Shown here: piece after piece, positions 28,022 through 46,800 of the stretch | How positions within the stretch are numbered: the stretch's first letter is position 1 | How the letters are laid out: the number at the start of each line of letters is the position of its first letter | Assembly (NCBI GenBank): GCA_003228685.1 | Contig: QIFC01000115.1 | Coordinates: 6,028 to 70,027 of the forward strand | Length of the DNA: 64,000 nucleotides | Source of the DNA: Chloroflexota bacterium | GTDB taxonomy: Bacteria > Chloroflexota > Dehalococcoidia > DSTF01 > RBG-16-68-14 | Reading direction: 5' to 3' | The notes under the pieces: model-generated | The model's database searches: none | What the model saw: the letters and a program-made list of their open reading frames with translations, nothing else | Told to the model about the DNA's origin: nothing | Program-made: the position numbers and the translations under genes

Positions 28022-28749
28022 CTGGAGGCTTGGGCGCCGACGGGGCCTGTGGGGTCGTAGATCCGCTGAGCGCGGACGATCACGCGGTCGTCGTACTCGC
28101 CGATGCTCGGATCGAAGGTGCCGCCGCAGGTAATCAACGTGATCACCTCGTTTGGCGTATCGCCAACGATCTCCTGGATAGGGGCTGTCGTCGCGTTGTA
28201 CTGGTTTCTGGAGGTGACACCATACCGATAGACCGTGCCGTCGGCGAGGCGGACCTCGATCTCGTCGTCCAGTTCAAGGTTCGTCAGGTTCCAGAACACG
28301 GCCGGGCCGTAGTTGTAGTAGTCCACGTGTCCTGAGAAGACCGCATTGCCACCGTTGCTTTCTTCAGGAGCGAAGCCAGGACGCCCACTGAAGTCGTACC
28401 AGGCGACGACGGTCGGGCTGTCCGGCGTCTCCATGACGCCCTGGTCGTCTACGCCAAGAGTCACGATTGGCGCCTCGATGTCGAAGCGCGGGATGGAAAT
28501 CATCTCGATCGGCGCTTCACTTGGAGGGGGAAGCTCGGCCGTTGGCGAGGCCACCGGGGTCAGTACCTGGCTGATGTCCCCGAAGTCGACCCTGGTAGCA
28601 GGCCCGCTGTACCCCTGGTCGCCGACTGTACCCGTGATCTGAAGGACGAAGAGGACGCCGGCCGCCAGCAGCGCTATCAAGCCAGCCGCCATCACGGCGA
28701 GCGAGAGGCGGTTCCAGCGGGCGGTTTCTGGTGGGTTCGTCTCCGTCAT
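28018..28749 (-). CDS. sortase (class E/F-like) paralog 2
   Basis: It aligns with paralog 1 along its length: NAVFSGHVDYYNYGPAVFWNL, TLITCGG and VIVRAQR. Confidence 0.85.
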   Translation of the reverse strand: MTETNPPETARWNRLSLAVMAAGLIALLAAGVLFVLQITGTVGDQGYSGPATRVDFGDISQVLTPVASPTAELPPPSEAPIEMISIPRFDIEAPIVTLGVDDQGVMETPDSPTVVAWYDFSGRPGFAPEESNGGNAVFSGHVDYYNYGPAVFWNLTNLELDDEIEVRLADGTVYRYGVTSRNQYNATTAPIQEIVGDTPNEVITLITCGGTFDPSIGEYDDRVIVRAQRIYDPTGPVGAQASR

Positions 28750-30076: not shown

Positions 30077-32953
30077 CTAGTACGCGAGCCAGCTCCAGAA
30101 GATACCGCTCGGCGCGCCCGGGAAGGTATCGATCAGGCCGGCGGCGTATTGGAGGATCAGCGCGGCGTCCAGCGGGTCGATGACGCCGTCGCCGTTGACG
30201 TCCGCGACGTTCGGGAACGGCACCTCGGCGATGTTTGCCGCCTGGAAGAGCACCCAGAGCGCGTCCAGCGGGTCGATCACTGTGTCGCCGTTGACGTCGC
30301 CCAGGTCGGGCTTCTCAGCAGGTGTCGTCGGTTCGCCGAAGTTCCATGCGCTCGCGGTGGAGCTGTGGATTGTGATTTCGATGTCACCTTCGGCGGTGCC
30401 GGTGAGCAGATTGCGCTTCGAGACGCACGGGTCCGGCGAGGCCGTGCCTGAGAGGCCCGTGCAGTTCGGCACCAGGATGCCGCCCTTGAAGACCGGCAGG
30501 TTGGCCGCCGTGATATCGTCCGGGACGATCGATTCGTCCAGGAGGAACCGGACGATCAGCGGGAACTGCGAGGTGCCGGCGGGCGCGCTGATGTTGGACT
30601 GCTGGCCGAAGAGGTGGTAGCCGGGCGGGTCCGGCTGGTTGATCAGCTTCTCAGTGATCGTGACCTTGCCGCCGACGGGCAACGTCACCGACGTCTCGAG
30701 CGGGTCGTCGGGCGTGGCGTCGAAGCCGGTCGTTACCTTGCCGCCCGGCGGCACCGTGCCTTGTGCGCCGTCCGGCGGCGCTGGCGTTGGCGTAATCGTC
30801 GGGGTATTCGTCTCGGTCGGCGTCGACGTTTGCGTCGGCGTGTCGGTCACCGTCGGCGTGTTTGTCGGCGTGGGCGTCGGGCAGGCGCTGGGGCCGCCGG
30901 GGCACGGGGTGTTCGTCGCTGTCGGCGACTCCGCGGGCGTTAAGGTCACGGTTGGCGTGATGGTCGCCGTCGGCGCCGGCGGCGGAGCTTCGCAGTTGAT
31001 GCGCAGCAGGTCGAGGAGCACGAAGTTATCATCCTCGTCCTTCACCGTGTCGCCGTCTTCATCCAGGGTGCGCGCGCCAATATCGGGCATGCTTCCGGGC
31101 GTGTAGAAGAGGTTGCTCTCCAGCGCTTGGTCCGGCTTGAAGAACGCGGAGCCGGTTTCGTTGAGGATGCCTCCCTGCTGGTTGTTCGCCGTCCGTTTCG
31201 TCAGGCCGATCGCGAACTGGCCCTCCTCCTGGCAGCGCACGTTCATCTCGGCGAGCCTGCCGACGCTGAGGTCTGAGAGGAGGGGCAAGAGCCCGTTCTC
31301 GGTTGCCCTGGCGTCCAGTCTGATCACGTTGGAAGGGTTGCTGCCACTCTTTGGGAATCTGTCGCAGTTGAAGGCGGTCCCGCTATCCGGCCGCCAGATG
31401 ATGTCATCGACGCACGGACGCGGCTCGTACACCAGCCCGGCAAGGTACGTCTCCAACTGGAAGCCGCCGTAGCCGTCCGGGATCGCGTCCGCGTTGACGG
31501 CGATCGTGAACGTGCTGGGGTCGTCCGCGTTGAACGGCGCCGTGCACTTGTCATCGGAGTCGCACACGATGCCGGTCCCTTCGGCAGAGAGCGACATCTT
31601 CTGCTTGATGAGCGCGCAGTCGATCTCGAGCACGTCGGCGTACGGATCGTCGACGAGGCCGACCTCCACGGGAGTGCCGTCGGCCAAGAAGAACGCCGAT
31701 GTCTCGGTCAGTCTGGCGAACGTGTCGTTGTTCGTGAGCCCGTTGCAGTAGACGTCCAGCTCCACGAGCGAGCCGTCGTGATCGCTGTTCGGGAAGGGCG
31801 GCTCCGCGGCTCTGCTCGCCTGGTGCTGAACTTGGAGCGCTGGTGGAGTGGCTGGCGCCGGTGTGATGGAACGTTCGCAGCTAGCGTTGAACAGGTCCGG
31901 CCAGATGTCGACCTCCTCCACGCAGCCGGCGGCATCGTCATCAGGGTTGCGCGGGTTGTACGTGAGTTTCTCGTCCAACAGCACCTCGGACTGGAAGCCG
32001 CCGTAGCCATCCGGCGTCGGGATCGTGTTGGCGTTGACGAAGAGCGTAAATTCGCCGAGTTTCTCCTGGCCGGGCCAGAAGTTCGCGCGGCATTGGGTCG
32101 GCTTGTCCTCGTCCCCCGTGCACGAGACGTAGCCGGGCTCGTCTTCGAGCGCGCCGGGCTCGCCGGTCGCGCTGAGCGACATGATGGCGCCCGGCAGCGG
32201 CGTGAATGTTGGCGTGATGGTGGGCGTGGTGGTTGGTGTTGCTGTTTCGGTGGCGGTTGGCGTGGGTGTCGCCGTTGGCGTGTTCGTCGGAGTGGCGGGC
32301 AACGCCCCTCCGGCGCCGCAGTTCACGTGCAGCGTGTCGACCTTCGGAATGATCTGGATGTTATTGGGATCTACGAACAATGAACCACTCGAACCGGCCG
32401 GGGGTACGCCGTTCGGCAGGAGTTCAATGATCTGACTGCTGCCCGTAGCCGAGCAGGTCATCGAGAGGTCGACGAAGTTGCCCGTGTAATTACTGACTGG
32501 CAGCGGGGGGAAAAAGCCCGTGACGCAGCCATGGCCGACGTTGCCAGCAGGAGGAGGATTGTTGGTCTGCGTGGGATCGATCCTGAGCAAGATTGCCCCC
32601 AGGCCGCACAGTGGCGGCTGCATCTCTTCAAGAACCGGCGTGCCCAAGTTGTACGTGACGTTTTCGAAGTAGTTGACCCAGGAGTTCACCGTCGTGAAGC
32701 CGGCGTCCGGAGCATCGATGATATCGACCGAGAGCGTGAAGTCGCCGTTGAGCGGAACACAGACCTCGCCCGGCGCGGTCGTGGCGCAGGTCTCAAAGCC
32801 ATCTTTGACCACCAGGACCATCTCGGCATCCGGTTCTACGGCGGACGTGACATTGAGTTCGTTGACGATAATGAACGCGCCCGCCACGAACGCGACGAGA
32901 ACGGCTGCCAGCACCGCAAGCCGGCCGGTCTCTCCCTGCCTTTGGAAACTCAT
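30077..32953 (-). CDS. secreted 958-aa protein: 3 Cys-bracketed cohesin-like modules, PT linkers, an unknown domain and a C-terminal type-I-like dockerin
   Basis: N-terminal hydrophobic anchor (LAVLAAVLVAFVAGAFIIV). Module copies end in ..VNCG, ..IDCA and ..INCE. Linkers include [32 protein letters not shown]. The C-terminus is GDVNGDTVIDPLDALWVL...DVNGDGVIDPLDAALILQ. Confidence 0.8.
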   Translation of the reverse strand: MSFQRQGETGRLAVLAAVLVAFVAGAFIIVNELNVTSAVEPDAEMVLVVKDGFETCATTAPGEVCVPLNGDFTLSVDIIDAPDAGFTTVNSWVNYFENVTYNLGTPVLEEMQPPLCGLGAILLRIDPTQTNNPPPAGNVGHGCVTGFFPPLPVSNYTGNFVDLSMTCSATGSSQIIELLPNGVPPAGSSGSLFVDPNNIQIIPKVDTLHVNCGAGGALPATPTNTPTATPTPTATETATPTTTPTITPTFTPLPGAIMSLSATGEPGALEDEPGYVSCTGDEDKPTQCRANFWPGQEKLGEFTLFVNANTIPTPDGYGGFQSEVLLDEKLTYNPRNPDDDAAGCVEEVDIWPDLFNASCERSITPAPATPPALQVQHQASRAAEPPFPNSDHDGSLVELDVYCNGLTNNDTFARLTETSAFFLADGTPVEVGLVDDPYADVLEIDCALIKQKMSLSAEGTGIVCDSDDKCTAPFNADDPSTFTIAVNADAIPDGYGGFQLETYLAGLVYEPRPCVDDIIWRPDSGTAFNCDRFPKSGSNPSNVIRLDARATENGLLPLLSDLSVGRLAEMNVRCQEEGQFAIGLTKRTANNQQGGILNETGSAFFKPDQALESNLFYTPGSMPDIGARTLDEDGDTVKDEDDNFVLLDLLRINCEAPPPAPTATITPTVTLTPAESPTATNTPCPGGPSACPTPTPTNTPTVTDTPTQTSTPTETNTPTITPTPAPPDGAQGTVPPGGKVTTGFDATPDDPLETSVTLPVGGKVTITEKLINQPDPPGYHLFGQQSNISAPAGTSQFPLIVRFLLDESIVPDDITAANLPVFKGGILVPNCTGLSGTASPDPCVSKRNLLTGTAEGDIEITIHSSTASAWNFGEPTTPAEKPDLGDVNGDTVIDPLDALWVLFQAANIAEVPFPNVADVNGDGVIDPLDAALILQYAAGLIDTFPGAPSGIFWSWLAY

Positions 32954-33324
32954 CCTCAGCCCCTTCCTCTCTGCCCCACCCCGCCGCTGACCCTCATGCC
33001 GCGCGGGAGTGTCGTGCTGACTGCCCTTCTAAAGACAGCCGTGGCCGGCATGCACGACCTCCACTTCACCTCATCCACCCGTACCGACGTGCTTGTCGGC
33101 CTCGCACACGGGCCTGATTCCTCACTCAGGCCCACTGAACTGGGAGTAAGCTTACCACACATAATGTGTAACGTAGCAGCCCGCGTCCTAGCCAGTATTT
33201 AACACATGTTAAGAGTACTACGGGGCTGGACTGCGGGGTATTAGGGTTTTCCCTTAATTGTGCTAACAGTCCGTCATAGGGAGCCCGGTCCGTGACGCTT
33301 CGAGAGACCTCAAGCTTGGGCGGC

Positions 33325-34332
33325 TCAGAGGCATCTGAACAGGTTGAGTTCGATCCAGAGGATGAACAGGGCATCGAGGGGGTCAACGACGCCGTCGCCG
33401 TTGACGTCGCCCGGGTGAGGCAGGCTGGGGATCATGGTGGTGCTGAACCAGAGCACCCAGAGCGCATCCTCCGCGTTGACGCGCCGGTCGCCGTTGACAT
33501 CGCCGCAGGGGAGGATGGCGCTGACGAAGGTGGCGGTCGGCGTCACCGGAGGCGGCGTGGCGGTGGGCGACGGCGTGGGTGTCGACAGGTCCGGCGTCGG
33601 CGTTACCGTGTCCGTGGGGCCGCCGGGGGTGCGCGTGGGCCCCGGCGTGGGCGTGGGCGGCTCGCCGCAGATCATGGTCAGCCCCGTGGTCTTGGGAACG
33701 ACATCCTCGTTGTCCGGGCCGCGGAACAACGAGCCGACGGTGCCGGTGGGGGAGGCGTCCGACGAGAACCTGGCGTAGGGGAGCATCTCAATTGGGTTGC
33801 TGCTGTCCCGCGGCGAACAGACCAGGACGATCTCCACGCCGATGCCGACGAAGCTGCTCGGCGGCGGCGCTATGATGCCGGAGAGGCAGCCGTGGCTGAC
33901 GAGCGTGTCGGTGTTATTCCCCAAACCGGGGAGCCGCTGGTCTGTCTGGGACTTCAGGGCGGTGGCGGGTTCGCAGTTCGGCCAGAGGATCTCAGAAATG
34001 GCGGTTGGCGAGAAGTCGTACGTGATGGCGCTGCCGTAGAGGATGGACGACTGGAAGATGATGTAGCCGGGGTCGCCGTTGCTGTCGGCGGCCGGGGCGC
34101 GGACGATCTCCACGCCGAGCTTGAAGGACTCGTTGGTGGCGAGCTGACACACCCCTTCCACGCAAACGTCCGGCGGGTCCGTCACAAGGAGCCGCATCTC
34201 GGGTCCTTCTCCGAAACCGGACGTCGGCGTCGCCGTCTGATCGGCCAGGACCAGCGTAAGGGCCAGCAGCAGTCCCAGTCCGAGGAGGAACGCTGTGAGA
34301 TGCTTGGCACGCCGTCCGGGTTGCACGCTCAT
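33325..34332 (-). CDS. secreted protein: cohesin-like N-module, PT linker and type-I-like dockerin
   Basis: The ATG at 34332 follows GGAGGG. Signal peptide LTAFLLGLGLLLALTLVLA. The module runs GPEMRLLV...GLTMICG. The C-terminus is CGDVNGDRRVNAEDALWVL...GDVNGDGVVDPLDALFIL. Confidence 0.8.
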   Translation of the reverse strand: MSVQPGRRAKHLTAFLLGLGLLLALTLVLADQTATPTSGFGEGPEMRLLVTDPPDVCVEGVCQLATNESFKLGVEIVRAPAADSNGDPGYIIFQSSILYGSAITYDFSPTAISEILWPNCEPATALKSQTDQRLPGLGNNTDTLVSHGCLSGIIAPPPSSFVGIGVEIVLVCSPRDSSNPIEMLPYARFSSDASPTGTVGSLFRGPDNEDVVPKTTGLTMICGEPPTPTPGPTRTPGGPTDTVTPTPDLSTPTPSPTATPPPVTPTATFVSAILPCGDVNGDRRVNAEDALWVLWFSTTMIPSLPHPGDVNGDGVVDPLDALFILWIELNLFRCL

Positions 34333-34539
34333 CGACCGGATCCCTCCAGAAAGCCCCACCCATCACGTCCGGTTCTGCCGCCGCCGATCTACAGCGGCTA
34401 TCGATCAGTTTACCATACGTGCGCTGAGCGGCCGTAGCGGGACTGGGGCGTCTCCTCAATCAGAGGGGGCACCCCGACTTGCGTCGGAGCGCCCCCCCAA
34501 TGAATCTCGAGTATCGTTACGCGTTCGCGATAACGGCTC

Positions 34540-35487
34540 CTAGCAGGTAAGCCTGTCCTGGTCGAGCAGACCGGCAACTACTTGCTGGATGAGAGCGGCG
34601 TCTCTGCTGTCCACGTTGCCGTCGCCGTTCACGTCCGCCTGATCACCCTTCGGCAGGCGGTCTGCGCCGTCAATGAGCCCGGCCTCTACTTGGAGGATGA
34701 GGAGCGCGTCTACGGCGTCCACCGCCTCGTTGTCGTTGACGTCGCCACACTGCTGTTCCGACGGGGTGCTGGTCGGCGGGACCGGCGTATTCGTCGGCGT
34801 GTTGGTGGGCGTGTCGACCGGTACGTCGTCCGGCGTGTTGGTCGGCGTTTCGTCCGGCACGTCCGGCGTGTCGGTTGGATCACCGCCACCAGCACCGCAG
34901 ACGATAGTGATGTTGCTCACCTTCGGAATAATGGGATTATCGCCAGGATCCTTGAACAGCGCGCCATTGGTGAGAGCGATCGGGTCGCCCTCTGGTAGCA
35001 GTTGCACTAACGTGCTGCTATCACCAGCCGAGCAGTTCATGGAATAGTTCAGAAAGTTGCCCGTGTAGGTGCTTACGGGACGCACCAGAATCCCGGTGAT
35101 GCAACCGCTAAGGACCGACTCTGGGTCCAACTGATCCCGCAGCGCTATAGACGCAGGGCTGCACTCTGGGAAGGAGAACTCGTCGAGAGGCAAATCCGTT
35201 GGCTTGTAGGTCAGGTCAGAGCCAAATACGACATATGACTGGGCCAAAATGTAGCCTTCGGCCGGCGCCGTCAAGACCTCCACCGAGAGGGTAAAGGCAG
35301 CGCCCGGTTCGACCGTGCAGGTGGAGCCTTCGCAAGTCCCACCTTCGCTGACTGTCAACGCCATCTCCGGGCCACCTTCGGCCGCGTCCGTGGTGCTGGT
35401 CAGGTTATCGGCCATGAAGAACGTCATTGCCAGCAGGGCAATCACGGCTGCCGCGCCGAGCCCTAGAATCCTTTTGCTTCGCTCCAT
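34540..35487 (-). CDS. secreted protein: cohesin-like N-module, PT/D linker and type-I-like dockerin
   Basis: The ATG at 35487 lies 6 nt after AAGGAGGT. The module runs GPEMALTVSEGGTCEGSTC...NITIVCG. The C-terminus is CGDVNDNEAVDAVDALLILQ...DVNGDGNVDSRDAALIQQ. Confidence 0.8.
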   Translation of the reverse strand: MERSKRILGLGAAAVIALLAMTFFMADNLTSTTDAAEGGPEMALTVSEGGTCEGSTCTVEPGAAFTLSVEVLTAPAEGYILAQSYVVFGSDLTYKPTDLPLDEFSFPECSPASIALRDQLDPESVLSGCITGILVRPVSTYTGNFLNYSMNCSAGDSSTLVQLLPEGDPIALTNGALFKDPGDNPIIPKVSNITIVCGAGGGDPTDTPDVPDETPTNTPDDVPVDTPTNTPTNTPVPPTSTPSEQQCGDVNDNEAVDAVDALLILQVEAGLIDGADRLPKGDQADVNGDGNVDSRDAALIQQVVAGLLDQDRLTC

Positions 35488-35525
35488 GCTGTTACCTCCT
35501 TGCATTTCCTACTTGGTCTCTACTC

Positions 35526-36317
35526 CTAGCGGCTGCGTGCCGCGCGCCAGCCGGACGCACCGAGGCCGGCGGCGCCAATGGCGAATAGGCCGCCGATCAC
35601 GAGCCACAGCATCGCGTTAGAACCATTGTCACCGGTCGAAAGCGGACCGCTCCCTGAGGGCGGAAGCACGATATCGCCGTCGCCGTCTCCGTCGCCGTCT
35701 CCGTCCGGGGTCGCGGTCGGCTCTGGCGGCGCTTCGCCGCAGTTGACCGTCACGGAGGCAACCTTGGGGAAGATCTGCTCGCCATTGTCCCCCGTCAAGA
35801 GAGCGCCGCTCGTGCCCGCGACGGGGTCGCCCTCGGGCAGCAACTGCACGTTGTTGCTGGAGAAGGTGTCGCTGCATTCCATTGCAAGCTCGAATACGGA
35901 GCCTTCGTAGGTGCTCAGCGGCAGCGGCGGGATGACGCCCGTGAGGCCGCCGTGCAGCACGGTATTTGGCGCAATCGAGTCGCGGACGACGACGTCCGGT
36001 ATCACGTCTGGCCACGTGACCTCTTCTCCGGCAGTGTCGGTCATATTGTATGTAAGGTCTGGGCCGTAATCGATGAACGACTGCACGAGCACGTAACCCT
36101 CGGCAGGCGCGGCGTCGACGTTGACTGTAAGTGTGAACGACTCTCCAAGATCGAGGTCGCACTCATCACCAGAGCATCCTGACACGCTGAGCGACATTGC
36201 TGCCGCTTCTTCAGCCAGCGCTGCCGGCTGAGCGAGGTGGCCCAGCATGAACACCGCGGCAAGGGCGGCGCCGATGATTGCTATGCGACTGAATGTGTTC
36301 CGTCCCTGTACTCCCAT
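35526..36317 (-). CDS. cell-wall-anchored protein: single cohesin-like module plus an LPPSG sorting signal (no dockerin)
   Basis: Signal peptide, then a module AMSLSVSGCSGDEC...SVTVNCG. It ends in DGDGDGDGDIVLPPSGSG + LWLVIGGLFAIGAAGLGASGW + RAARSR, that is, LPXTG-like motif, TM helix and basic tail. Confidence 0.8.
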   Translation of the reverse strand: MGVQGRNTFSRIAIIGAALAAVFMLGHLAQPAALAEEAAAMSLSVSGCSGDECDLDLGESFTLTVNVDAAPAEGYVLVQSFIDYGPDLTYNMTDTAGEEVTWPDVIPDVVVRDSIAPNTVLHGGLTGVIPPLPLSTYEGSVFELAMECSDTFSSNNVQLLPEGDPVAGTSGALLTGDNGEQIFPKVASVTVNCGEAPPEPTATPDGDGDGDGDGDIVLPPSGSGPLSTGDNGSNAMLWLVIGGLFAIGAAGLGASGWRAARSR

Positions 36318-36574
36318 GTTTATCCTTCCTCCTGCTTCCAGTCTTACCCCAAGAACCTACGGCAGGGCCATTCTCCCGAGGAGTTCAGCCCAACCTCTAC
36401 CCAATACTGTGTGTGTCCCCCGCCACCAAATGCGGAAAGTCACCCCAGCACAGGGCTTAGCCTAGCGCATTGGCCAACAGAGCACCATGTCTCATTCGCC
36501 GGGCGCTATCCAAGTTCGCAACAATAATACTGGATCGTTCCGCATGCGCAAGGCCACGTTCGGCAGCTACGAGT

Positions 36575-36609
36575 CCGGGGGAGCCGTCCGTATGTGGCGG
36601 CTCCCCCGG
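36575..36609 (-). terminator. 12-bp GC-rich hairpin downstream of the 36632 gene
   Basis: ccgggggagccg-tccgtatgtgg-cggctcccccgg begins about 23 nt after the stop on the minus strand. I see no clear U-tract. Confidence 0.6.
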
Positions 36610-36631
36610 AGAATATCAGGCTTCGAAGGCG

Positions 36632-37465
36632 CTAAGGCTGGTTGCAGGGCAGTTGGAACTGCAGGATCGTGCCTAGGATGTCGTTTGCCAAGTCGATGAA
36701 GCCATCGCTATTGATGTCGAACGCGGGGCTCCAGTCAGGATCGAGGGGCGTCATCTGGAACCGGATAATCACGCCCAGGATGTCGTTCGCCAAGTCGACG
36801 ACTCCGTCTCCGTTTGGTGGCGGCGAGTTGTCCGCGCAACCAAGGTAGACGATGTTGGAGTTCTTCAAGGTGAGCGGTATCTGCTCCAAATCCAGGTCGA
36901 CCGGAGCGTCAAGCAGGAACGTTCCCTGAACGCCGACATCTGGGGCCACAAACGCGAGCGGCGAAGAGAGGGCCATCTCTGAGCCTGGAGTCAGCACGAG
37001 GTGCCCGATCAAGCCGGTGCCGGTCGGCCCCAGGGGCGGAGGAGGACTCAATGTTGAGCACAGTCCGATGACTTGACCTGCCTGGGGGTTCTGACCGGGA
37101 ATGCACGCTCCGGACCGGTTGGTTGACTGGAGCCACGCCCTGTCGCCAATCCCGTCTGCGTCGCCAGGGGCGGCGGAAGCTGCGAAGAGGGAGTCATCAT
37201 ACTGTACGGCGATGTTGAAGCCCGAGACGCCGGTAGGCTCCTTGACGTTGGTAGCCCACACGTAGATGTCACGTGGAAATCCGTTTGGAGTGAGGATGAT
37301 AGCCGGTGCGCCTATAGGACTTAGGCTTGAATAGCTGAACATGATCTGCGTGTCGGTTGCGCTCTCGGCGCTGGGTTGCCGCGCCAGGCTTAACGTGATA
37401 ACAACCGCGGCTGCCAGGATAACGACCTTCGTCAGAGTGAGCGTGCTGCCTATCAAGACCTTCAC
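36632..37465 (-). CDS. secreted protein: cohesin-like domain plus a 'DLANDILG'-type double dockerin-like module
   Basis: The GTG at 37465 lies 4 nt after AGGAGGAAG. TGVSGFNIAVQYDDSLF is a cohesin-like strand. The C-terminus is DGVVDLANDILGVIIRFQ...DGFIDLANDILGTILQFQ. Confidence 0.75.
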   Translation of the reverse strand: MKVLIGSTLTLTKVVILAAAVVITLSLARQPSAESATDTQIMFSYSSLSPIGAPAIILTPNGFPRDIYVWATNVKEPTGVSGFNIAVQYDDSLFAASAAPGDADGIGDRAWLQSTNRSGACIPGQNPQAGQVIGLCSTLSPPPPLGPTGTGLIGHLVLTPGSEMALSSPLAFVAPDVGVQGTFLLDAPVDLDLEQIPLTLKNSNIVYLGCADNSPPPNGDGVVDLANDILGVIIRFQMTPLDPDWSPAFDINSDGFIDLANDILGTILQFQLPCNQP

Positions 37466-37769
37466 TAAACTTCCTCCTGCGCCGTTCTTCGCCGGCAGGC
37501 GCCTCGTCTTCTGCTCCCCACGTCTATTCACGCCGCCGTAAGAGCCCTCAGGCGCACCAACGTATCGCCTGAGTCTTGCGCGCTACGAACGCTTGCGTTG
37601 CGTCATTCCTTAGCACTCTGCGTCTCTCCATTAATCCAACGGTCGAATGCGACAATTCGTAACGCAATCTGTCGCTGTCGTGCCTTTTTCTGATGGCTCC
37701 CCTCGTCAAGGCCCGCGTCCCGTCCCTCCCGGGACCTAACGAGGACAGCCATGCCGGCCAGAAGATGAA

Positions 37770-37812
37770 GGGACGGGGGAGCCGAACTCTTGGTCCGGTG
37801 CTCCCCCGTCCC
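37770..37812 (-). terminator. 13-bp perfect hairpin downstream of the 37895 gene
   Basis: gggacgggggagc-(17 nt)-gctcccccgtccc begins about 80 nt after the stop on the minus strand. Confidence 0.6.
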
Positions 37813-37894
37813 TGTGGTCACTCCTTGACCTGCTGTATTTGCTTTCCCCGCAACCTCTTTCTCAGGTTACGGACTAACTACGTTCGTTGCCTCC

Positions 37895-39424
37895 TTAGGC
37901 CTTCGGGTTGACCGGATCCTGCGTCGGGTGCGGTGTCTCGCAGGTGCTGCCGAATCTGCCGAATACGAACTGTAGGTCGTTGATATCGATGTCCAAGTCC
38001 GACTGCTGGCTTGAGGGCTCCAGGTTCATGAAGTCCTTGTAGATCAGGCTGCCCTTCTCTACGCCCCAGCGGAAGGCGATCGCTTGTGCGTCAACAGCAG
38101 TGACGGCACAGTCAGCATCCACATCTCCCTCGAGGTAGCGGAACGTGATGCTCGCGTCGTCGCAGGAGAAGATCGGAATCGCGTGGCCCTGCTCGTCGCC
38201 AAGGTCACAGTTCACGTTGCTGATGAAGACGACGTTACCGTTGTCCTGGTTCGGCTTCATTTCCGAGTACAGGTCCGGCTGCGGGTAGATGTCCACGGAA
38301 GCCAGTGCAAGCAGCTCATCGATCGCGTGGCCCTTGCCAACGGTGACACAACCGATGCGGGCTACGCCCTCGAGCTGCGGCTTGGAGTCAGGCTGGTCAT
38401 CTTCGATGATGCAGATGGCCGGTCCAGGAGACTCCGGGTCCTTGATCGGGTTGCCACCCCACTCTTCGCCTGCGTTGATGTCAACACAGACCTTCTTGTT
38501 GTCGTAGCGCACCTCGAACTCGAAGGCTGCGAGCTGCTGGAATTCGCTCTCGCCCTTGGGGTCCGGAGAGACGATTTCCTGGTTCAGAATCTCGGCGAGC
38601 TCGCCAACGTTGGCGTTTGTCCCCTTGGTCGACAGACAAGAACTCGGAGGAATCTTCGCGCCCTGGCGCGTCAGGAACACGTTCTGCAGCGCCGGGTCCT
38701 TGCTCATGCGCGGGATCGGCGGCGGCGTCGCTGTCGGCGTCGCGGTCGGTCCAGGTGCGCAGTTCACAGTAAGACCGGTGACGGACGGGTTAATCTGCTT
38801 GTCCGTGCCGCCCTCGGTGAAGAACGTTCCGTTCGTCAGAGCGGGAGCTTGGTCACCCACAATCAGGGTCAGTACGGACGTGCTGGCCGTGGTCGTGCAC
38901 GTGAACGAGAACCCGAACAGGTCGCCCACGTAGTCGCTGATCGGCAACGGCGGAATGCCTGCCGTGGTGGCGCCAGCTTGGTAGCCGTTGTTCGCCACGT
39001 CATCGATCGTGAGGAACGGGCCGAACGCCTGGTCCCAGATCATACATGGGTCCCCAACGCCCGTGTCGCACTTGTTGTCGACCGGAACGCCTGTGGCATC
39101 CGCGGGCTTGGTTACTAGGCCCTGGTTGTCGTAGTCGATCCACGTGTTCACCAGGACATAGCCACCGGTCGGGATCACGTCCGCGACCGAGATGACATTA
39201 AACTTTGCGCCCAGGGGTACACAGACCTTGCCTGCTGCAGGATTGGCGCAGTCGAAAGCGTCGCCGGCGGGTATGCGCAGGCTGACTTGCGGATCCTGGT
39301 TGTCTGGGTTGAGCGCACTAGCGCTGTCGGAGCTTTGGCCAATTGCAAAGACCATGACCGCTACCGCAATTGCGAGCAGCGGAAGGCCCAGCAGACCCAG
39401 CACCTTGATTCGGTTGATATTCAC
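37895..39424 (-). CDS. secreted protein: cohesin-like N-module, second cohesin-like module and a '[14 protein letters not shown]'-type dockerin-like module
   Basis: The GTG start lies 7 nt after TAGGAGGT. The N-module runs DPQVSLRIPAGDAFDC...GLTVNCA. The C-terminal half (FEFEVRYDNKKV..IGCVTVG..) plus GDVDADCAVTAVDAQAIAFRWG...[20 protein letters not shown] parallels aa ~1330-1543 of the scaffoldin. Confidence 0.8.
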   Translation of the reverse strand: MNINRIKVLGLLGLPLLAIAVAVMVFAIGQSSDSASALNPDNQDPQVSLRIPAGDAFDCANPAAGKVCVPLGAKFNVISVADVIPTGGYVLVNTWIDYDNQGLVTKPADATGVPVDNKCDTGVGDPCMIWDQAFGPFLTIDDVANNGYQAGATTAGIPPLPISDYVGDLFGFSFTCTTTASTSVLTLIVGDQAPALTNGTFFTEGGTDKQINPSVTGLTVNCAPGPTATPTATPPPIPRMSKDPALQNVFLTRQGAKIPPSSCLSTKGTNANVGELAEILNQEIVSPDPKGESEFQQLAAFEFEVRYDNKKVCVDINAGEEWGGNPIKDPESPGPAICIIEDDQPDSKPQLEGVARIGCVTVGKGHAIDELLALASVDIYPQPDLYSEMKPNQDNGNVVFISNVNCDLGDEQGHAIPIFSCDDASITFRYLEGDVDADCAVTAVDAQAIAFRWGVEKGSLIYKDFMNLEPSSQQSDLDIDINDLQFVFGRFGSTCETPHPTQDPVNPKA

Positions 39425-39761
39425 TTATTCGACCTCCTACCGAGAAGTTGATACTTCTCTACCTTGTTGATGTTGCCTTGTGTAATGCTAGACATCCCCC
39501 CTTTCATGGCTCCAGACGGGGTAGGAACCAATGCCAATACGGCGAACTAGCAATCAACCGGGCGGGTTCGGCGATTGGTCAATTTTGGCCGCAGCGCGAC
39601 CGTCTCAGGCGGGGTACCTGTGGAATTTCTTCCACCAGCTTGTCCTTGTATATCATGGGTACCTGTCTTTGTCAACCCATCCCTCATGGGTACATTACGC
39701 TTCAAACCAGATTCCGACCCTCTCCTAGCTACGAGCCCAATGGGATTCCAGACGTATTTCA

Positions 39762-41966
39762 CTAGAGCAGCAGCGAGCAGTCTTGTGTGAAGTTCTGGAT
39801 TACGGGCAACATATCGAAGGCCAGGCCGACGAATCCGTCACCGTCGAAGTCGTAGAGCACGTCGAATTCGATGTCACTATCCGAGAGGCCGAGGGACTCA
39901 ATCATCGTGAGAATGTCGTTAGCCAGGTCAACAATGAGGTCTCCGTCGATATCGAAGCAGGCGCGTAGCAGGGTCGTTTCGCTCGCGTCGTTGCCCGCTG
40001 GTATCTCGTCGGGGTCGGACGCGGTGACGGTCACGCTGTTGATGATGTTCCTGTCCTCCAGCAGGGTTGGGGCCCGCACGTTGAGCGTGATCACCACCTG
40101 CTGGTTGACGTTGATCTCGTCGATGGTGCATTCCACTTTGTCGCCAGGTATCGCCTGACAGGCGGCGCCAACCGCGGACTCGAACGTGGCTGGCCTAAAG
40201 ACCGAGCCGGTGACGAGCGTAATGCTCGCGAGGGGCAGCGTGTCCGTCACAACAACGTCCAAGGCGTCTCCCAGGCCCTGGTTGAGGACGGTGATCTCGT
40301 AGCTGTAGTAGCCCAGGCGCAGCACAGGATCTTGGGAGTCCGTCTTTGAGACGACGAGGTCCGGTGGCGGCGCGATCACGGCTGTGTTCTCGACAGCTAG
40401 GTTGTTGCCTGTCTGGAGGAACAGCTCGTTGTCGGAGGTGACGAACGCCGAGTTCTTGAGGAAGGTACTTCTCGTGACTTCCGGCGCGGTCAGGACGATC
40501 TGGACGATCGACTCCGCGTTGGGAGCGAGCTTGCCGAGGTCGCACGTCACCTCACCGCTGTCCAATACGCACCCGGGGCCGGCCGAGACGAACGCCGCCT
40601 CCGGCGGCAGGGTGTCGACAATCTGGACGTTCTGCGCCGGGTGCGGCCCCAGGTTCTTAGCGACGAGGGTGTACGTGACGTCCTCACCACCGTCCAGAAA
40701 CGTGGGATCCCCTACCTTGGTAAGGATGACGTCGGAACGGGGCGCCAGCACCATCGTCTGCTCGATGTCTTTGTTGTTCCCCGTGTTGGCGAACGGTTCG
40801 TTCGTGGACGTCACGGTCACATTGTTGTCCACCAGCGCGTCCGTCACCTGCGTGGGCGCGTTGACGGTGATATCGATTGTGATGATATCGGTGGGCGCCA
40901 TGTCGCTCGTGACAGCGCAGGTCACGACGCCGGCCACGTGGTTGCACGTGGCATCGGCGGACGCCGCCGACTTGAACACTGATCCGGCGGGCAGCGTGTC
41001 TTCAACGACGACATTTTCGGCGGTCTGCAGTCCGATACTCTCGACCGTGATCTGATACGAAAGGCTGCCACCTGAGTCGACCGGGTCGATGAGGTCGACT
41101 TTCGTGACCTTCACGTCGGGCCGCTCGCTGGGTGGAGGGAGCGGCGTTGGCGTGTTCGTCGGCGTCGGCGATACGGTCGGCGTGGGCGTCGGCGGTATCG
41201 GCGTGTCCGTGGGTGTAGGTGTCGGGCCGACGCACTTGATCGTGAGCGTGTCCACCTTCGGTATTATTTGCGTGTTCGTACCGAATTCGGTGAACAGACT
41301 GCCGCTGGTCCCAGCCAGTGGGTCTCCTTCAGGGAGTAGCCGCACGAGCGTGCTGCTGGAGGAGGCGGAGCAGTTGATGTTAAGGATCACGAGGTTGCCA
41401 ATGTAGTCACTCGGCGGCTGTGGAGGAATTAGCGCGGTCAGTCCGCCATGGCCGATCGAAGCTGGAGCAATGTCCGTCCTGAGTGCGCCGCCGGGGAACA
41501 AGTGGGGCCAGACAACCTCATCACTCGGAAAGGTCGTGGGTTTGTAGGTCAAGTCCTCGGTTACGCAGTCGGCGTCTCTCCTGTCCGCGCCGCCGCCGCC
41601 ATTATCGATGTTGTCGCTGCACGTATTGGGGCCGTAGCCATCTTCGCTTGCGCTTGGGTTGTACGTGCCGAAGTCAACGAATGTATTCATCAGGATGTAC
41701 CCGCCGGCCGGGATACCCACTGCCTCTACGGCTAAGGTGAAGGGATCTTCAGCCATGACACATATCGTGTCCGGCCCGGTTCCCAGCGGACACGTTGTGC
41801 TGCCGCTCTTGACTGAAAGCGCCATCTCGGGCCCACCGCCAGCGGCCTCGGCTCGCTCATGAGCCGGCTGTTGCCATGTAAGGACGACCGCTACGGCCGC
41901 CACAATAATGGCCGGTACGATCAGAAGTCGCAGAGCCATCCTCTTCCGTTTCGTGTTGCCCTCCAT
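39762..41966 (-). CDS. secreted protein: cohesin-like N-module, PT linker, DUF11-type repeats and a 'DLANDIL'-type dockerin-like module
   Basis: AAGGAGGAGGG precedes the ATG. The module runs GPEMALSVKSGSTTC...TLTIKCVG. There are about 4 repeats of the pattern V.K.....V..G..V.Y.I.V.N.G...A.NV.V.DTLP, which I take as DUF11-like. The C-terminus is DGDLIVDLANDILTMI...DGDGFVGLAFDMLPVI. Confidence 0.8.
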   Translation of the reverse strand: MEGNTKRKRMALRLLIVPAIIVAAVAVVLTWQQPAHERAEAAGGGPEMALSVKSGSTTCPLGTGPDTICVMAEDPFTLAVEAVGIPAGGYILMNTFVDFGTYNPSASEDGYGPNTCSDNIDNGGGGADRRDADCVTEDLTYKPTTFPSDEVVWPHLFPGGALRTDIAPASIGHGGLTALIPPQPPSDYIGNLVILNINCSASSSSTLVRLLPEGDPLAGTSGSLFTEFGTNTQIIPKVDTLTIKCVGPTPTPTDTPIPPTPTPTVSPTPTNTPTPLPPPSERPDVKVTKVDLIDPVDSGGSLSYQITVESIGLQTAENVVVEDTLPAGSVFKSAASADATCNHVAGVVTCAVTSDMAPTDIITIDITVNAPTQVTDALVDNNVTVTSTNEPFANTGNNKDIEQTMVLAPRSDVILTKVGDPTFLDGGEDVTYTLVAKNLGPHPAQNVQIVDTLPPEAAFVSAGPGCVLDSGEVTCDLGKLAPNAESIVQIVLTAPEVTRSTFLKNSAFVTSDNELFLQTGNNLAVENTAVIAPPPDLVVSKTDSQDPVLRLGYYSYEITVLNQGLGDALDVVVTDTLPLASITLVTGSVFRPATFESAVGAACQAIPGDKVECTIDEINVNQQVVITLNVRAPTLLEDRNIINSVTVTASDPDEIPAGNDASETTLLRACFDIDGDLIVDLANDILTMIESLGLSDSDIEFDVLYDFDGDGFVGLAFDMLPVIQNFTQDCSLLL

Positions 41967-42023
41967 GTCGTGCCCTCCTCCTTGATCCTTCGTGCCCGAA
42001 TTCTGACGTTCAGGAATCCCCTA

Positions 42024-43754
42024 TTATACAGGCAGGCGCGGCAGCAGACCTGCATCGAATTGCAGGACGAGCGCGGCGTCCACACTATTGATTCCACCGC
42101 CGTTGACGTCGCCTTCCGCATCGCATGGGAGCGACGACACCAGCCCCGCGACGCGCTGTAGGATCAGGGCCGCATCGACGCTGTTCGTCGTCGCGTCACA
42201 GTTCACGTCGCCCGATCCACCCGTGATGCCCGCTGGCCCCGCGCAGCTCGCTGCGTCGATGTCGTCCGTCTGGCGCAGGCCGAGTGTCGCGGCGCTGTAC
42301 GCCACGACCGGTGGACTTCCGGCCTTGATCATGTCGCCCGCACTGGCCCCTATCGCGGGCAGGGTAGGCGAGCCCGGCGCCAACGAGAACAGCAGCGTGT
42401 CTGATGCGCTGTAGACGTCGTCACCACGTTCAACGAGGCAGAGGCCGTCGACGTCGTCCGTCGCCTGAAGACCCAGTTGTTCGCGAGATGCGTAGAGGGA
42501 TGGAGTCTCGGCGTTCGAGGTGCGCAGTATATCGCCCGCGGTGAAGCCGAGCGCGGCCAGAGAAGGCGACGAGGCGTCCAGAGAGAAATAGACTGGGCTC
42601 TCCGGCACGCCGTCCGCGTTCCGGTCGACGACCGATGGATCCCAGGCAACGAACGCATCCAGCTCATCTCTCATGGACACCGCTTCGAGAAGCCCGAGCG
42701 GGAAGGCTGCCTGGCAAGCGCCCACTGGCCCGTTTCCGTCAAAGAGAAGCAAATTCGTCCCAGCCAGCAGCGAGCGAAAGATATCCGACTCTGGTTCCGG
42801 GGAGAGGCCGGGCTCCGCGGGAGGGCAGAGGCTCTGCACCTCTACGGCGCTGCCGTCGCTGCCGAGCGCTCCGGCAGTCACAGAGAAGTCGACCGCCGGT
42901 TCAGTCTCCACGACCGCTGAGCCGAACGACAGAGCGTCTACGTTGTCTTGGCCAAAGGAATCATCGCAGCCGTCGTCCGAGAGCCCCAGACTATCGCACG
43001 CAATGCGCAGATACGGCGCCTGACCGACGCCTGGCAGCGCCACGGCCGGCAAAATTCCGAGAATGTCCGCTGGATGGAATTGGGACGCATCTCTACCAAC
43101 TGAGAAGCTCGCCGGGAGCGGGGCCACCGCGATACTCAGGCTACGGATGCAGAGTCCCAGTTCGGATTCGAGGTTCGCCTCGTCCACAAGCGGGATGCAG
43201 GCGTCCGATTCAGGAAGCTCGAACGTCACGTCAAACGGTGGCCATGCTTCAAGGAGAGTTGCTGTTCCGTCCGATGCGGGCTCCAGGTCCAGACTGGCTT
43301 CATTGTGCAGAAGCAAGGGGCCAGCGGGGCTGGAAGGCACCTCCAGATCGAGGAACAGGTTTAACGTGGCCGTAGCCGGGAAGGGCTGGCCGGGCGTGAT
43401 GCCACGCAGTTGACCACCTGACTTGTATGATTCTCCGGCGTTCGCCCGTTCCGTGACGGCCACGAGACCGAAACGGCTCGCGCCAACAAGCTCAAGGCTG
43501 GCGATCTCAAGGTCCACGATCTCAATGCCATCCTCCGTATGCGGTGCTCCGCGGATCACCTCAATCCAACCTCTTAGGATCACCAGATCCTCGCCCAGCA
43601 GACTGCCCGCCTCAGCGACCACGGCCACGGGAAGCACATCGGCGCCAACTACCGGCATGCCGCCTGCCCTGGCGGGGCTGCCGGCTCCCGCCAGCACCAC
43701 GAAGGAGAGGGCGCAGACGCCTGCCATCGCGTAACCTGCAGTGCGAATGTTCAT
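42024..43754 (-). CDS. secreted protein of unknown fold with a C-terminal type-I-like dockerin
   Basis: The ATG at 43754 gives the signal peptide MNIRTAGYAMAGVCALSFVVLAGAGSPARA. The longer ORF start at 43862 would overlap the scaffoldin stop by 4 nt. The C-terminus is GDVNCDATTNSVDAALILQ...GDVNGGGINSVDAALVLQ. Confidence 0.75.
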   Translation of the reverse strand: MNIRTAGYAMAGVCALSFVVLAGAGSPARAGGMPVVGADVLPVAVVAEAGSLLGEDLVILRGWIEVIRGAPHTEDGIEIVDLEIASLELVGASRFGLVAVTERANAGESYKSGGQLRGITPGQPFPATATLNLFLDLEVPSSPAGPLLLHNEASLDLEPASDGTATLLEAWPPFDVTFELPESDACIPLVDEANLESELGLCIRSLSIAVAPLPASFSVGRDASQFHPADILGILPAVALPGVGQAPYLRIACDSLGLSDDGCDDSFGQDNVDALSFGSAVVETEPAVDFSVTAGALGSDGSAVEVQSLCPPAEPGLSPEPESDIFRSLLAGTNLLLFDGNGPVGACQAAFPLGLLEAVSMRDELDAFVAWDPSVVDRNADGVPESPVYFSLDASSPSLAALGFTAGDILRTSNAETPSLYASREQLGLQATDDVDGLCLVERGDDVYSASDTLLFSLAPGSPTLPAIGASAGDMIKAGSPPVVAYSAATLGLRQTDDIDAASCAGPAGITGGSGDVNCDATTNSVDAALILQRVAGLVSSLPCDAEGDVNGGGINSVDAALVLQFDAGLLPRLPV

Positions 43755-43858
43755 GAGAACCGGGCCTTCGACCCGCTGCGAGGCGGGAATACCAGCTTGG
43801 AGAGGGCGTGGCGCCAGTATACGTTCCCTCTTAACAGTGTCGCAAACAGCTAGCCTGT

Positions 43859-46800
43859 TCAAGGCCTAGTGTCCTGCCGCTCGGACGCTAGGACCTCTCT
43901 GAACCGAAGCCTGAACGGTTCCCGCGCGCTCACTCTCTGACGTCGCCACCAAAGCATCCGTGACCCGATCAACATGGCGAGGCCGCCGAGCAGGGCCGCG
44001 CCGGCCAATGATGTCGAGAGCCGGTCCTGGCTGTTTGAGCCGCTCCCTGTGTCTGGGAGGCCGACCACGGGCCCGCGTGCGGATGGCGCGACATCGCTGA
44101 CGGGTGTAGCCGTCGACGCGCCGATGACGGGCGGCCCGGTGTCGGTACCGTCCGTGGGCGTGGCGGTTGCCTGCGGGCTGTCGGTGGGCCTCGCGATGAA
44201 CACGGGCGTAGCCGTTGGGACCGGCGGCGAAGTCGACGTTGCTGTAGGCAGTGGCGTCGCTGTCGGCGGCCGCAGTGGCGTGGGCGTCGCGGTGTTTGGA
44301 AGAACGGGCGTGTCCGTGGCCGTTGCGTCTGGCGCTGGAGTATCGGTCACCGTGGCGCCCGGTACCGGCGTGTGCGTCGAGGTTGCCGTCACCGTAGCCA
44401 GCGTCGTTGGTGATGGCTCTGGCGTGCCCGAGCTGGACGGCTCCTCGGTTGGCGTAACCGTTGCCGTTACGGTCGGGAGCGGTGTCGCCGTTGGCGTGTC
44501 GCCCTCGGTTGGCGTGGCCGTCGGCGTCACGGTTGCGGCGGGCGTGCCAGCATCCTCACCGCCGGGCGTTGGCGTGCTCGTCGTGGCCGGAGTGACCGTC
44601 GCGCCGGGAGTCGTGGTGACGGTGGCCACAGGCGTCGGCGTTGGCGTCTGATCTATCGGCGATGGAGTCGGCGTAAACGTCGGCGTGGTCTTCGTGGGTG
44701 GTTCCTGCGCCTGCCACGGGTTCGCACAGGTGCTGCCATGACGGCCGTAGACGGCCTGCAGGTCGTTGATGTCGATGTCTCCGTCCGCCACGCCTTCCGG
44801 TTCCAGGTCGAACCATGTTTCGTAGAACTTGGAGCCCTTTTCAGCTCCGAAACGGGCGGCGACCATCTGCTCGTCTGAGACGTTCACCGCGCAGTCGGCG
44901 TTGATGTCCGACTCAAGGACACGGACGATGATTCTGGCATCTCCGACGAGGTTAAGCGGGATGGAGTTGCCGAGCGTATCCGAGAGCTGCGTATTGCCCG
45001 CGATATCGTCGAGGACCACCTCGATGCCGTTACCCGGCGCGGGGCGTAGCGGCAGATCTGAGAGAGGCGTGACATGGACGCGAGCGAGGTCGAACGTCCC
45101 GGTCGGGCCGGGGTCAGATCCAGACGTGACGCAGCCGAAGCGAATCTCTCCTTCCGTGAGGTCTGAGAGACAGGTAGCGGTGCGGTCCGTGCCTGCGATG
45201 GCATCTAGGAAGGGCTGACCATCAATTTCGAGCGATACAACCTTATGGTTGAACTTGATGGAAAGCTCAAATCCGCCTACCCCAGGCCCCGCCGGTGTGT
45301 TGTAGGCACGTTCGTAAATGATCAACGGCTCATTTCCGATGAAGAGGTTGGCTTCACTCGGTTCCTTGGCGATGGCCACCACCCCTTCGCCGGGCTCCAC
45401 GGCGGGAGCAGCGACGCTTTGCGTGCCGTCCGGATAGGCGACGGCCAATTTGCCTGACGTGACGGCAACTCTCAACGGTGCAGGAGAGATCCCGGACAGG
45501 GATGGGCTTCCCGGCGTGGCTGTCGGCGTCTGCGTTGCGGCCGGGAGAGGCGTGGCCGTCGATGGCGCGACAACTCCAATGATGCCGTCCTGTGTCACGA
45601 TGGGCAGCAGAAGCGCGCTCGAAATGTCTGTGAGGATCGGGTTAGACAGGTGCTGCGTTGAAAGACCTTCGCCGACGGCCAGGTAGGTGAACGTCGCGAT
45701 GACGCCGGAACCGTCAGGTCCAGGGACGATGGAGCCAATCGATGCGCAGGCGAAGTCCACGAATCCGGCTCCGAACGTCGCCGGAAGACAGGCGAGACTC
45801 CTTCCGGTGCTGCCCAGGAACGGGCCAACTGCAACCTCTTGTATTGTTGTCACCGCCGGGCTGAAGTCGAGCCTAAATTGGAAGGCCCCCAGGTCGGTCA
45901 CGTTCTCCACGACGACGTCGACGGAGGTGATTGTTCCCAGGTCCACTGTCTGATTTGTCGGCTGGATACGCATCGTAATCGGGCCAACTGCGGGCGTTGG
46001 CGTCGCTGTTGGCGTGTCTATAGGTATGGGCGTGTCCGTTGGCGTGGGTGTATCTGTTGGCGTTTGCGTGATGGTGGCCGTCGGGCAGATGCCGCCTGGA
46101 CACGGGGTTGGTGAGAGCGTCGGTGTTGGCGTGTCCGAAGGCGTTGGACTCAGCGTCGTCGTCGGTGTGCTGCTTGGCGTGACGGTTGGAGCGACGCCGA
46201 CGGACAGCGAGCCGCCTTGAAGCACCGGTGCCAGATGGGCGAGCCCTCCAATGTCCGTCAGGATCACGTCCTGGAGCGTCAGTGATGTGAAGCCGATGGC
46301 GTCTCCGGTCAAGGTGACGAATGCCAAGACTCCCGAGCCGGTGGGCCCTGCAGGCTCGGGTTCAAGCGTAACGCAGACGTATTGGATGATCCCTGGGCCA
46401 AACGTTGGGGCTAGACACGTGGTGTTCCGCAGCGTGCTCGAAAGGAAGGGTCCTGGGTCGATCCCGGTCACCGATGCGACGGCCACATCGTGGGTCAGCG
46501 TTACCTGGAATGCGCCCAACTCAGGCGAATTAGCGACCGCGATTTCGTAGACGGCGTCGCTGCCTTGGGCGATCGACTGGTCGGCAGGCTGGAGGCAGAC
46601 GGTGAGCACTAAGGCCGCGTTACAGGCCGGCGGCGTTGGTGTGGCGCTCGGCGTAGCTGTTGGACCTGTGGGCGTGGACGTTGGCGTGGCCGACGGTGGC
46701 GCCGGTGTGGGACACGTGATGTTGCCCAACACGGTCACGTCACTACCCTGGGAAGCGACGGGAATGGGGAGGCCGGCCGTGTCCGCGATCTCCAGCGAAC

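Follow-up and report, generated by a model that had tools for sequence, protein, structure and literature searches.

A conserved Dehalococcoidia gene cluster with three dockerin classes, predicted to encode a sortase-anchored cohesin-dockerin surface assembly

Introduction

Could three different kinds of dockerin-like module, borne by neighboring genes of an uncultured bacterium, serve as a code for the assembly of a complex on its surface? The question arises from a 64,000-nucleotide stretch, referred to here as the window, of a Chloroflexota bacterium of the class Dehalococcoidia (GenBank assembly GCA_003228685.1, contig QIFC01000115.1, positions 6,028 to 70,027 of the forward strand), which contains a gene cluster headed by a scaffoldin with multiple cohesins. 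No modular protein glue of bacteria has been studied as thoroughly as the cohesin-dockerin pair, which is also a workhorse of synthetic biology, and to our knowledge almost all of its characterized specificities come from cellulolytic Firmicutes.

The original prediction, made from the letters of the window, had distinguished three dockerin flavours (A, B and C) in ten segments, with at least three types of receptor opposite them. All ten segments do carry the motifs described for them, in frame on the minus strand and either at the extreme C-terminus of a protein or, at 44726-44911, inside the scaffoldin (one range, printed as 62608-26, was taken as 62608-62826). Six-frame pattern and hidden Markov model scans of the 64 kb found the motifs confined to these segments, with none on non-coding frames. 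Our reading, to which we assign a probability of roughly 0.6, is that a cluster conserved in uncultured Dehalococcoidia codes for a cohesin-dockerin assembly on the cell surface, anchored by sortase and different from a cellulosome, and a wiring code specific to the flavours appears plausible.

Results

Three classes of dockerin module

The cluster (30077-49354) consists of nine minus-strand genes, the scaffoldin included, all with high third-position GC and transcribed in the order scaffoldin, p612, p734, p509, p299, p263, p321, p344 and p958; two further genes with flavour B tails, p306 and p365, lie outside it. On sequence grounds, the C-terminal modules form three discrete classes, all of them dockerin derivatives. 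Flavour A is the only one that belongs to the Pfam family Dockerin_1 (PF00404; gathering cut-off 22.9 bits), with scores of 37.7 bits in p958 (30080-30301), 34.2 bits in p344 (33328-33504) and 33.5 bits in p321 (34543-34746), while the module of p612 (42027-42212), at 20.9 bits, lies slightly under the cut-off. Both of its Ca-loops are canonical. Subtypes of flavour A are kept between species: that of p344 is Trp-rich, and that of p612, which has an internal Cys pair, is conserved across the seven syntenic loci described below.

Family models alone do not settle the membership of flavours B and C, which are tied to dockerins by profile-profile comparison and by profile searches of the PDB. Using hhalign, a 31-sequence profile of flavour C aligned with flavour A at 93% probability (E 2.8e-7), and a 20-tail profile of flavour B aligned with the local flavour A at 49% (E 1.7e-4). 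The real scores of 37.0 (C versus A) and 24.5 (B versus A), as well as a third of 20.0, exceeded the maxima of 60 column-shuffled controls (16.2 and 17.8). Among PDB sequences, flavour B best matched the type II X-module-dockerins of Acetivibrio cellulolyticus ScaA (4wi0_B and 4u3s_B, E 1.3e-4), and flavour C best matched the dockerin 2y3n_B (E 3e-4), followed by the type II X-module-dockerin of CipA (2b59_B, E 0.03), with which it aligns from end to end, including a common KGS..Y linker. By these comparisons both flavours are closest to the type II dockerins of clostridial scaffoldins, and the claim that they are dockerin-type modules is supported at the level of sequence.

Flavour B proved to be a domain that NCBIfam already curates as NF041520, "flexitail" (cut-off 40 bits). 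The tail of p365 is a full member (136.4 bits), and those of p299, p306 and p734 score 33.1, 27.4 and 18.3 bits, respectively, as divergent or partial members. The anatomy of its repeats is as originally described: they are doubled in p299 (36638-36838) and p365 (62608-62826) and single in p306 (58469-58558), and in p734 (39765-39953) the second repeat is degenerate, with D9 changed to G and N12 to F. The module is a Cys-bracketed pair of F-hand repeats in which both loops are one residue longer (N12, D13), longer by one residue than those of GC-type dockerins as well, and the first loop of the p299 family is devoid of D1. In the AlphaFold2 (AF2) model of p299, the predicted local distance difference test (pLDDT) score is 79.7 overall and 85-89 for the flavour B tail; the modeled helices begin exactly at loop position 10 in both repeats, as they do in flavour C.

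The most telling evidence for flavour B as a dockerin is its replacement, on orthologous genes, by classical or GC-type dockerins. A homolog of p299, P0150, has a classical dockerin in the alignment columns occupied by flavour B, column for column, and in four loci of other metagenome-assembled genomes (MAGs; L017, L019, L025 and L031) the orthologs of p299 and p734 carry tails of the NCBIfam "GC-type dockerin" (NF041540), scoring up to 31 bits against a cut-off of 29. Across lineages, the flexitail and GC-type tails make up a single continuum. The suggestion that these are sequence classes different from known ones is not entirely right, since flavour B is already curated as flexitail and grades into the GC-type dockerin in sister lineages; flavour C is without a family model.

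Flexitail-type tails were found in 593 representative protein clusters. With few exceptions, they stand at the very C-terminal end of secreted cargo of diverse kinds, which in the sampled proteins included subtilase, FG-GAP and RCC1 propellers, GSDH, beta-helix, M23 peptidase and alpha/beta-hydrolase domains. This survey was made by an exhaustive search of representatives combined with Pfam; a word-indexed protein database gave almost only short fragments. A literature search for "flexitail" returned unrelated antibody-engineering papers only. Flavour B had also been held to be conserved at the DNA level, and the 26-mer in question does have four matches with up to three mismatches where none is expected. 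Since all four are in-frame codons of the peptide VIDLANDIL in p299 and p365, this is amino-acid conservation combined with codon bias, and the 26-mer was rejected as a separate DNA element.

Flavour C is present twice in the window, in the scaffoldin (44726-44911, amino acids 1482-1543) and in p509 (37940-38140), each time directly after a divergent cohesin. Residues 298-503 of p509 and 1359-1551 of the scaffoldin are 37% identical (E 4e-32), in agreement with the claim that both copies follow the same cohesin type. No Pfam or NCBIfam model matched flavour C, the best NCBIfam score being that of flexitail at 16-20 bits. Among 87 instances, loop 1 has D1 in 98%, N/D3 in 72%, D5 in 89%, D/N9 in 91% and D12 in 100%, with Cys at position 6; loop 2, D-x-D-I-D-I-x-D, comprises positions 5-12 only and has Asp at 5, 7, 9 and 12 in at least 94% each; and the terminal Cys is invariant. 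The loops are joined by a linker of 25-30 residues containing KGS..Y, which resembles that of type II dockerins. All 88 instances of flavour C lie directly behind a cohesin-fold module without a linker. This cohesin-flavour C dyad has more than 160 metagenome homologs, of which the named ones are labeled Chloroflexi or Dehalococcoidia, and a search of reference MAGs found 75 loci, often several in a genome. In one metagenomic homolog, P0073, flavour C is followed by a Pro/Thr linker and a second complete dyad, an architecture from which it follows that dyads can stand in tandem.

Most dockerin modules, whatever their flavour, are bracketed by Cys residues (33328-33504, 34543-34746, 36638-36838 and 37940-38140), as are the N-terminal modules (N-modules) of the partner proteins. 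Their placement suggests disulfide "clasps" joining the termini of each module.

Candidate receptor modules and predicted wall anchoring

All of the candidate receptor modules fall within the cohesin superfamily. The scaffoldin (43859-49354, minus strand; 1831 amino acids) matches Pfam Cohesin (PF00963) at 129 bits and consists of a signal peptide, seven tandem cohesins, a divergent eighth cohesin, flavour C, a Pro/Thr linker and an LPDTG signal. The tandem cohesins occupy 45569-49198 (Coh1, 48770-49198; Coh2, 48233-48664; Coh3, 47693-48118; Coh4, 47207-47626; Coh5, 46715-47134; Coh6, 46223-46624; Coh7, 45569-45985) and share 29-54% pairwise identity. Coh1, Coh2, Coh6 and Coh7 match positions 1-4 of the four-cohesin scaffoldins of other MAGs more closely than they match any paralog in the window, so that the seven represent four conserved positional types, and Coh3-5 look like a local, recent expansion of the Coh1 type. 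This positional orthology hints at an ordered assembly rather than random loading.

The eighth cohesin (coh8; 44912-45397, amino acids ~1320-1481) is fused directly to flavour C and is related to the scaffoldin cohesins at E 1.5e-17 by hhalign. AF2 models of the coh8-type module of p509 (38141-38707) and of the N-domain of p299 (36842-37351) were compared with the PDB by Foldseek, and in both cases more than 30 top matches were all cohesins (E 1e-6 and 8e-9, respectively; matches E 1e-6 to 1e-9, TM-score to target 0.65-0.75). The Cys-bracketed N-modules aligned with the scaffoldin cohesins over 102 columns at 92.8% probability (E 4e-7) when the alignments were enlarged with 78 N-modules and 150 cohesins gathered from related loci, and by this comparison they are diverged modules of the cohesin superfamily. 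The receptor classes accordingly number more than three, namely the four positional scaffoldin types, coh8, the p299 cohesin and the N-modules. The cohesin relationship of the eighth cohesin and the N-modules supports their place in the earlier count of at least three types; that count took the seven tandem cohesins for one type, which at 29-54% identity they are not, and it omitted the cohesin of p299.

Several features predict that the scaffoldin is anchored by sortase. Its sorting signal (43931-44059, read from the sequence as LPDTG, a hydrophobic helix and RRQR) follows flavour C after a Pro/Thr linker of ~220 amino acids; p263 (35526-36317, minus strand), which consists of an N-module, LPPSG, a transmembrane helix and a basic tail and has no dockerin, carries a second such signal; and two adjacent minus-strand genes match Pfam Sortase (paralog 1, 26427-27155, 75.5 bits; paralog 2, 28018-28749, 73 bits). 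Orthologous scaffoldins keep LPxTG, the transmembrane helix and the basic tail downstream of flavour C, p263 orthologs also carry LPxTG, and in L001 and L021 the corresponding end of the cluster likewise has a sortase. A common design, [cohesin]n-(coh8)-C-linker-LPxTG, is shared by at least 16 MAG scaffoldins. p263 is a candidate for a wall-anchored single-receptor protein. In both the LPDTG and the LPPSG signal, GSG comes after the motif, and the spacer that leads to the hydrophobic helix, at ~15 residues, is unusually long; the two sortases are paralogs with 65% identity.

Conservation of the cluster

The order of genes, from nuoB through the scaffoldin, the partner genes and a PD40 gene to sortase, is kept in at least seven Dehalococcoidia MAG loci (L001, L004, L017, L019, L021, L025 and L031). 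In at least seven syntenic MAG loci, the three flavours are on the same orthologous genes, and each genome examined keeps them discrete. B-type tails on two unrelated genes co-vary within genomes, changing in concert from one lineage to the next (permutation p 0.00085).

In three loci (L019, 583-3837; L025, 1835-4984; L031, 1594-4596), the scaffoldin runs from four cohesins over a Pro/Thr linker to a terminal Cys-bracketed GC-type dockerin, which replaces the coh8-flavour C-LPxTG end, and the anchoring strategy therefore differs between lineages. Three loci (L017, 10811-12097; L025, 10909-11943; L004, 11034-12035) have, between the p509 and p299 orthologs, an additional gene whose product has one scaffoldin-type cohesin, a Pro/Thr linker and, at its C-terminus, a membrane helix; this gene is not in the window, where only ~360 bp lie between p509 and p299.

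Discussion

A proposed assembly and its alternatives

That the flavours have different cohesin partners is suggested by the persistence of each on the same orthologous gene, by the concerted change of the B-type tails and by the conservation of cohesin positions and flavour A subtypes across species. In the assembly we propose, each flavour would bind its own cohesin class, giving a layered complex on the cell surface. Sortase would fix the scaffoldin to the wall, where defined partners, in the simplest case the cluster's own flavour A proteins, would dock on its four positional cohesin types. A second tier could then assemble on the cohesin-like N-modules of these partners, drawn for instance from the many secreted proteins with flexitail tags that other parts of the genome encode, such as proteases, hydrolases and beta-propellers. 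The cohesin-flavour C dyad, for its part, would behave as a rigid, X-dockerin-like unit through which the scaffoldin and p509 connect with another partner. A more specific version must be considered speculative: an ordered complex of fixed stoichiometry, rather than a stochastic one of the cellulosome kind, in which one specific flavour A subtype (the types of p612, p321, p344 and p958) would dock on each of the anciently diverged Coh1, Coh2, Coh6 and Coh7 types, scaffoldins or p509 would be cross-linked head to tail by the dyads, and the N-modules would display flexitail-tagged enzymes. If true, such a complex would be a programmable multi-tier protein lattice on the Dehalococcoidia surface.

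A number of observations weigh against this assembly. Compared with Dockerin_1, the B1 segment alone reaches 15.4 bits (E 0.022), the other B segments have no match at E up to 10, and neither of the two flavour C segments has a match at that threshold. In the flexitail loop, position 12 is Asn and the Asp is moved to 13, and the second loop of flavour C is without positions 1 and 3, which makes it possible that Ca2+ coordination in both flavours may be different or lost. Flavour C is modeled at low confidence in p509 (pLDDT 53-71). The link between N-modules and cohesins stands on one profile-profile comparison, which was not significant when the alignments were drawn from the window only (E 0.09). 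The scaffoldin bears its own sortase signal besides its flavour C module. Finally, the concerted change of the B-type tails is driven mainly by a block of two clades and could reflect gene conversion within the locus rather than co-evolution with a receptor; for this reason, we do not take the co-variation as proof of the latter.

It is possible that the dyad is self-contained, with flavour C bound to its own cohesin in a closed, capped or auto-inhibited form, or with the cohesin serving only to brace it, in which case flavour C would contribute no intermolecular specificity to a code. The unfailing position of flavour C directly behind a cohesin-fold module and the strict co-occurrence of coh8 with it would fit such an arrangement, as would the predicted template modeling score (pTM) of 0.75 for the AF2 two-module model of p509, and X-module-dockerin dyads are a known rigid arrangement, that of CipA being among the best PDB relatives of flavour C. 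However, the low pLDDT of flavour C means that its placement on the cohesin is not confident, the zero-length linker would hinder it from reaching the usual dockerin-binding face of the same cohesin, and strongly conserved surface Asp, Gln and Arg residues among the 87 instances suggest an external partner, so that we regard a self-contained dyad as rather unlikely. A different role could be imagined for flexitail, namely that of a general C-terminal tag for surface retention or sorting that binds an envelope polymer or is recognized by a processing machine, rather than a ligand of cohesins, its likeness to dockerins reflecting shared EF-hand ancestry only. NCBIfam curates it solely as the tail of a "putative surface protein", unrelated secreted proteins carry it by the hundred, its scores fall short of the Pfam dockerin threshold, and its extra loop residue alters the canonical spacing of the Ca-loop. 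Yet bona fide classical and GC-type dockerins replace it on orthologous genes, its best PDB relatives are type II dockerins that bind cohesins, the cluster in which it stands is dominated by cohesins, and it has neither a hydrophobic anchor nor a cleavage-type motif; the tag explanation is accordingly an unlikely one.

The last alternative concerns the code itself, since the flavours could be drifted versions of one dockerin type with promiscuous, overlapping specificity, loaded on a one-tier scaffold. Cross-reactive dockerins are known in cellulosomes, flavour B grades continuously into GC-type dockerins across lineages, and the flavour on a given gene can switch between lineages. Nevertheless, A, B and C are discrete in every genome examined and on the same orthologous genes, and both the scaffoldin cohesins and the flavour A subtypes are closer between species than between paralogs, the pattern expected of maintained distinct specificities. 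We therefore consider a single promiscuous type improbable, and retain the layered assembly with a plausible flavour-specific code as our preferred reading.

Relation to known systems

The closest analog is the cellulosome of Ruminococcus flavefaciens (ScaA/ScaB/ScaC/ScaE), in which ScaE is a single-cohesin protein anchored by an LPXTG sortase signal. Shared with it are several dockerin groups, adaptors with both cohesin and dockerin, and a single-repeat dockerin, here that of p306. In R. flavefaciens, six dockerin groups have distinct cohesin specificities (PMC5301203), and naturally truncated single-repeat dockerins exist (PMC12270676). An intramolecular clasp is reported for the ScaA dockerin of R. 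flavefaciens (PMC3821032), and the bracketing Cys clasps suggested here would be its covalent version. The Dehalococcoidia system differs in that the cluster has no glycoside hydrolase, esterase, lyase or carbohydrate-binding module (CBM) cargo, the cargo itself is cohesin-like, the scaffoldin is itself predicted to be anchored by sortase, a cohesin-fold module rather than an X-module is fused directly to one dockerin class, and the host is a member of the Chloroflexota rather than the Firmicutes. Indeed, Pfam and NCBIfam scans of all cluster proteins found cohesin, dockerin and DUF11 only, with no glycoside hydrolase, carbohydrate esterase, polysaccharide lyase or CBM family, and thus neither the dockerin-borne carbohydrate-active enzymes nor the scaffoldin CBM of a cellulosome.

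The type I/II hierarchy of CipA in Clostridium thermocellum and ScaA in A. cellulolyticus (2b59, 3kcp, 4wi0 and 4u3s) is also close, with a tandem-cohesin scaffoldin followed by a specialized dockerin of another class and, in flavour C, the KGS..Y linker. Unlike in those proteins, the module before the flavour C dockerin of p509 and before the flavour B dockerin of p299 has a cohesin fold and not that of an Ig-like X-module, so that the likeness to an X-module-dockerin is confined to where the dyad stands in the protein and to the linker motif, and the sequence matches are weak (E 1e-4 to 0.03). Moreover, flavour C lies upstream of the long linker and sortase signal and would hence not be needed for anchoring, as the dockerin of CipA is. 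Cohesin and dockerin folds also serve outside plant cell-wall degradation, and structures of this kind were among the Foldseek matches (the Archaeoglobus fulgidus cohesin 2xdh and the Clostridium perfringens GH84 cohesins 2jh2 and 2o4e). There, an enzyme or toxin bears one or a few such modules, whereas the present case is a multi-gene locus with an eight-cohesin scaffoldin and three dockerin classes. The NF041520 model makes no functional claim for flexitail beyond "putative surface protein".

Within the library searched, a literature search for cohesin and dockerin in Chloroflexi or Dehalococcoidia returned metagenome surveys only and no account of such a system. The locus would add a new source of cohesin-dockerin pairs at the level of phylum, from uncultured Dehalococcoidia, two dockerin classes new to experiment, one of them without a family model, and a scaffoldin with position-conserved cohesins that hint at ordered assembly; we know of no precedent for its direct fusion of cohesin and dockerin. 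If our reading is true, the NCBIfam "flexitail" tag, borne by hundreds of secreted Chloroflexota proteins, would gain a function, some light would be shed on the cell-surface organization of the poorly known Dehalococcoidia, and new orthogonal cohesin-dockerin pairs would be directly useful for designer protein assemblies.

Other genes of the cluster and its surroundings

The remaining cluster genes, all on the minus strand, combine the modules described above in various ways. Downstream of the scaffoldin, p612 (42024-43862) joins its flavour A dockerin to an N-terminal region of 550 residues (42213-43862) with repeated F/SL..GSP.L..(I/L)G..AGD(I/M) motifs, for which no Pfam or NCBIfam family matched, and its orthologs are found at the same position in all seven syntenic loci. 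p734 (39762-41966) has an N-module (41232-41831), three DUF11 repeats (~39972-41114; Pfam DUF11, 142 bits) and its flavour B tail; p509 (37895-39424) has an N-module (38756-39292) and a Pro/Thr linker before its coh8-type cohesin and flavour C; and p299 (36632-37531) has an N-terminal hydrophobic helix before its cohesin-fold module and doubled flavour B, its start codon being probably at 37465. After p263, the genes p321 (34540-35505) and p344 (33325-34359) each encode an N-module, a linker and flavour A, and p958 (30077-32953) encodes three N-modules, a region of unknown type and flavour A. Past p958 lie a plus-strand PD40 beta-propeller gene and then the two sortase genes, with a DUF3105 gene (27230-27841; Pfam DUF3105, 72 bits) between them.

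Outside the cluster, p306 (58466-59386, minus strand) combines an N-module with its single flavour B repeat, and p365 (62605-63702, minus strand) has a CarboxypepD_reg-like module and TSP3 repeats before its full flexitail. The reading frame of p365 is open as far as 63999, the end of the window, and its N-terminus is probably cut off by the window edge. Between the cluster and these outlying flexitail genes, 54647-57292 encodes a polytopic membrane protein of 881 amino acids that matched no Pfam family. The G+C content of the window is 59-67% in 2-kb windows, and long plus-strand open reading frames opposite cluster genes (33292-34437, 38084-39118 and 47844-48809), which are Arg/Gly- or Ser/Pro-rich, were rejected as genes and are artefacts of the high G+C. 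The window also contains a nickel superoxide dismutase gene (51744-52262) and an isolated nuoB-like gene (49717-50355); the latter lies immediately upstream of the scaffoldin, an adjacency that is kept in L019, L025 and L031.

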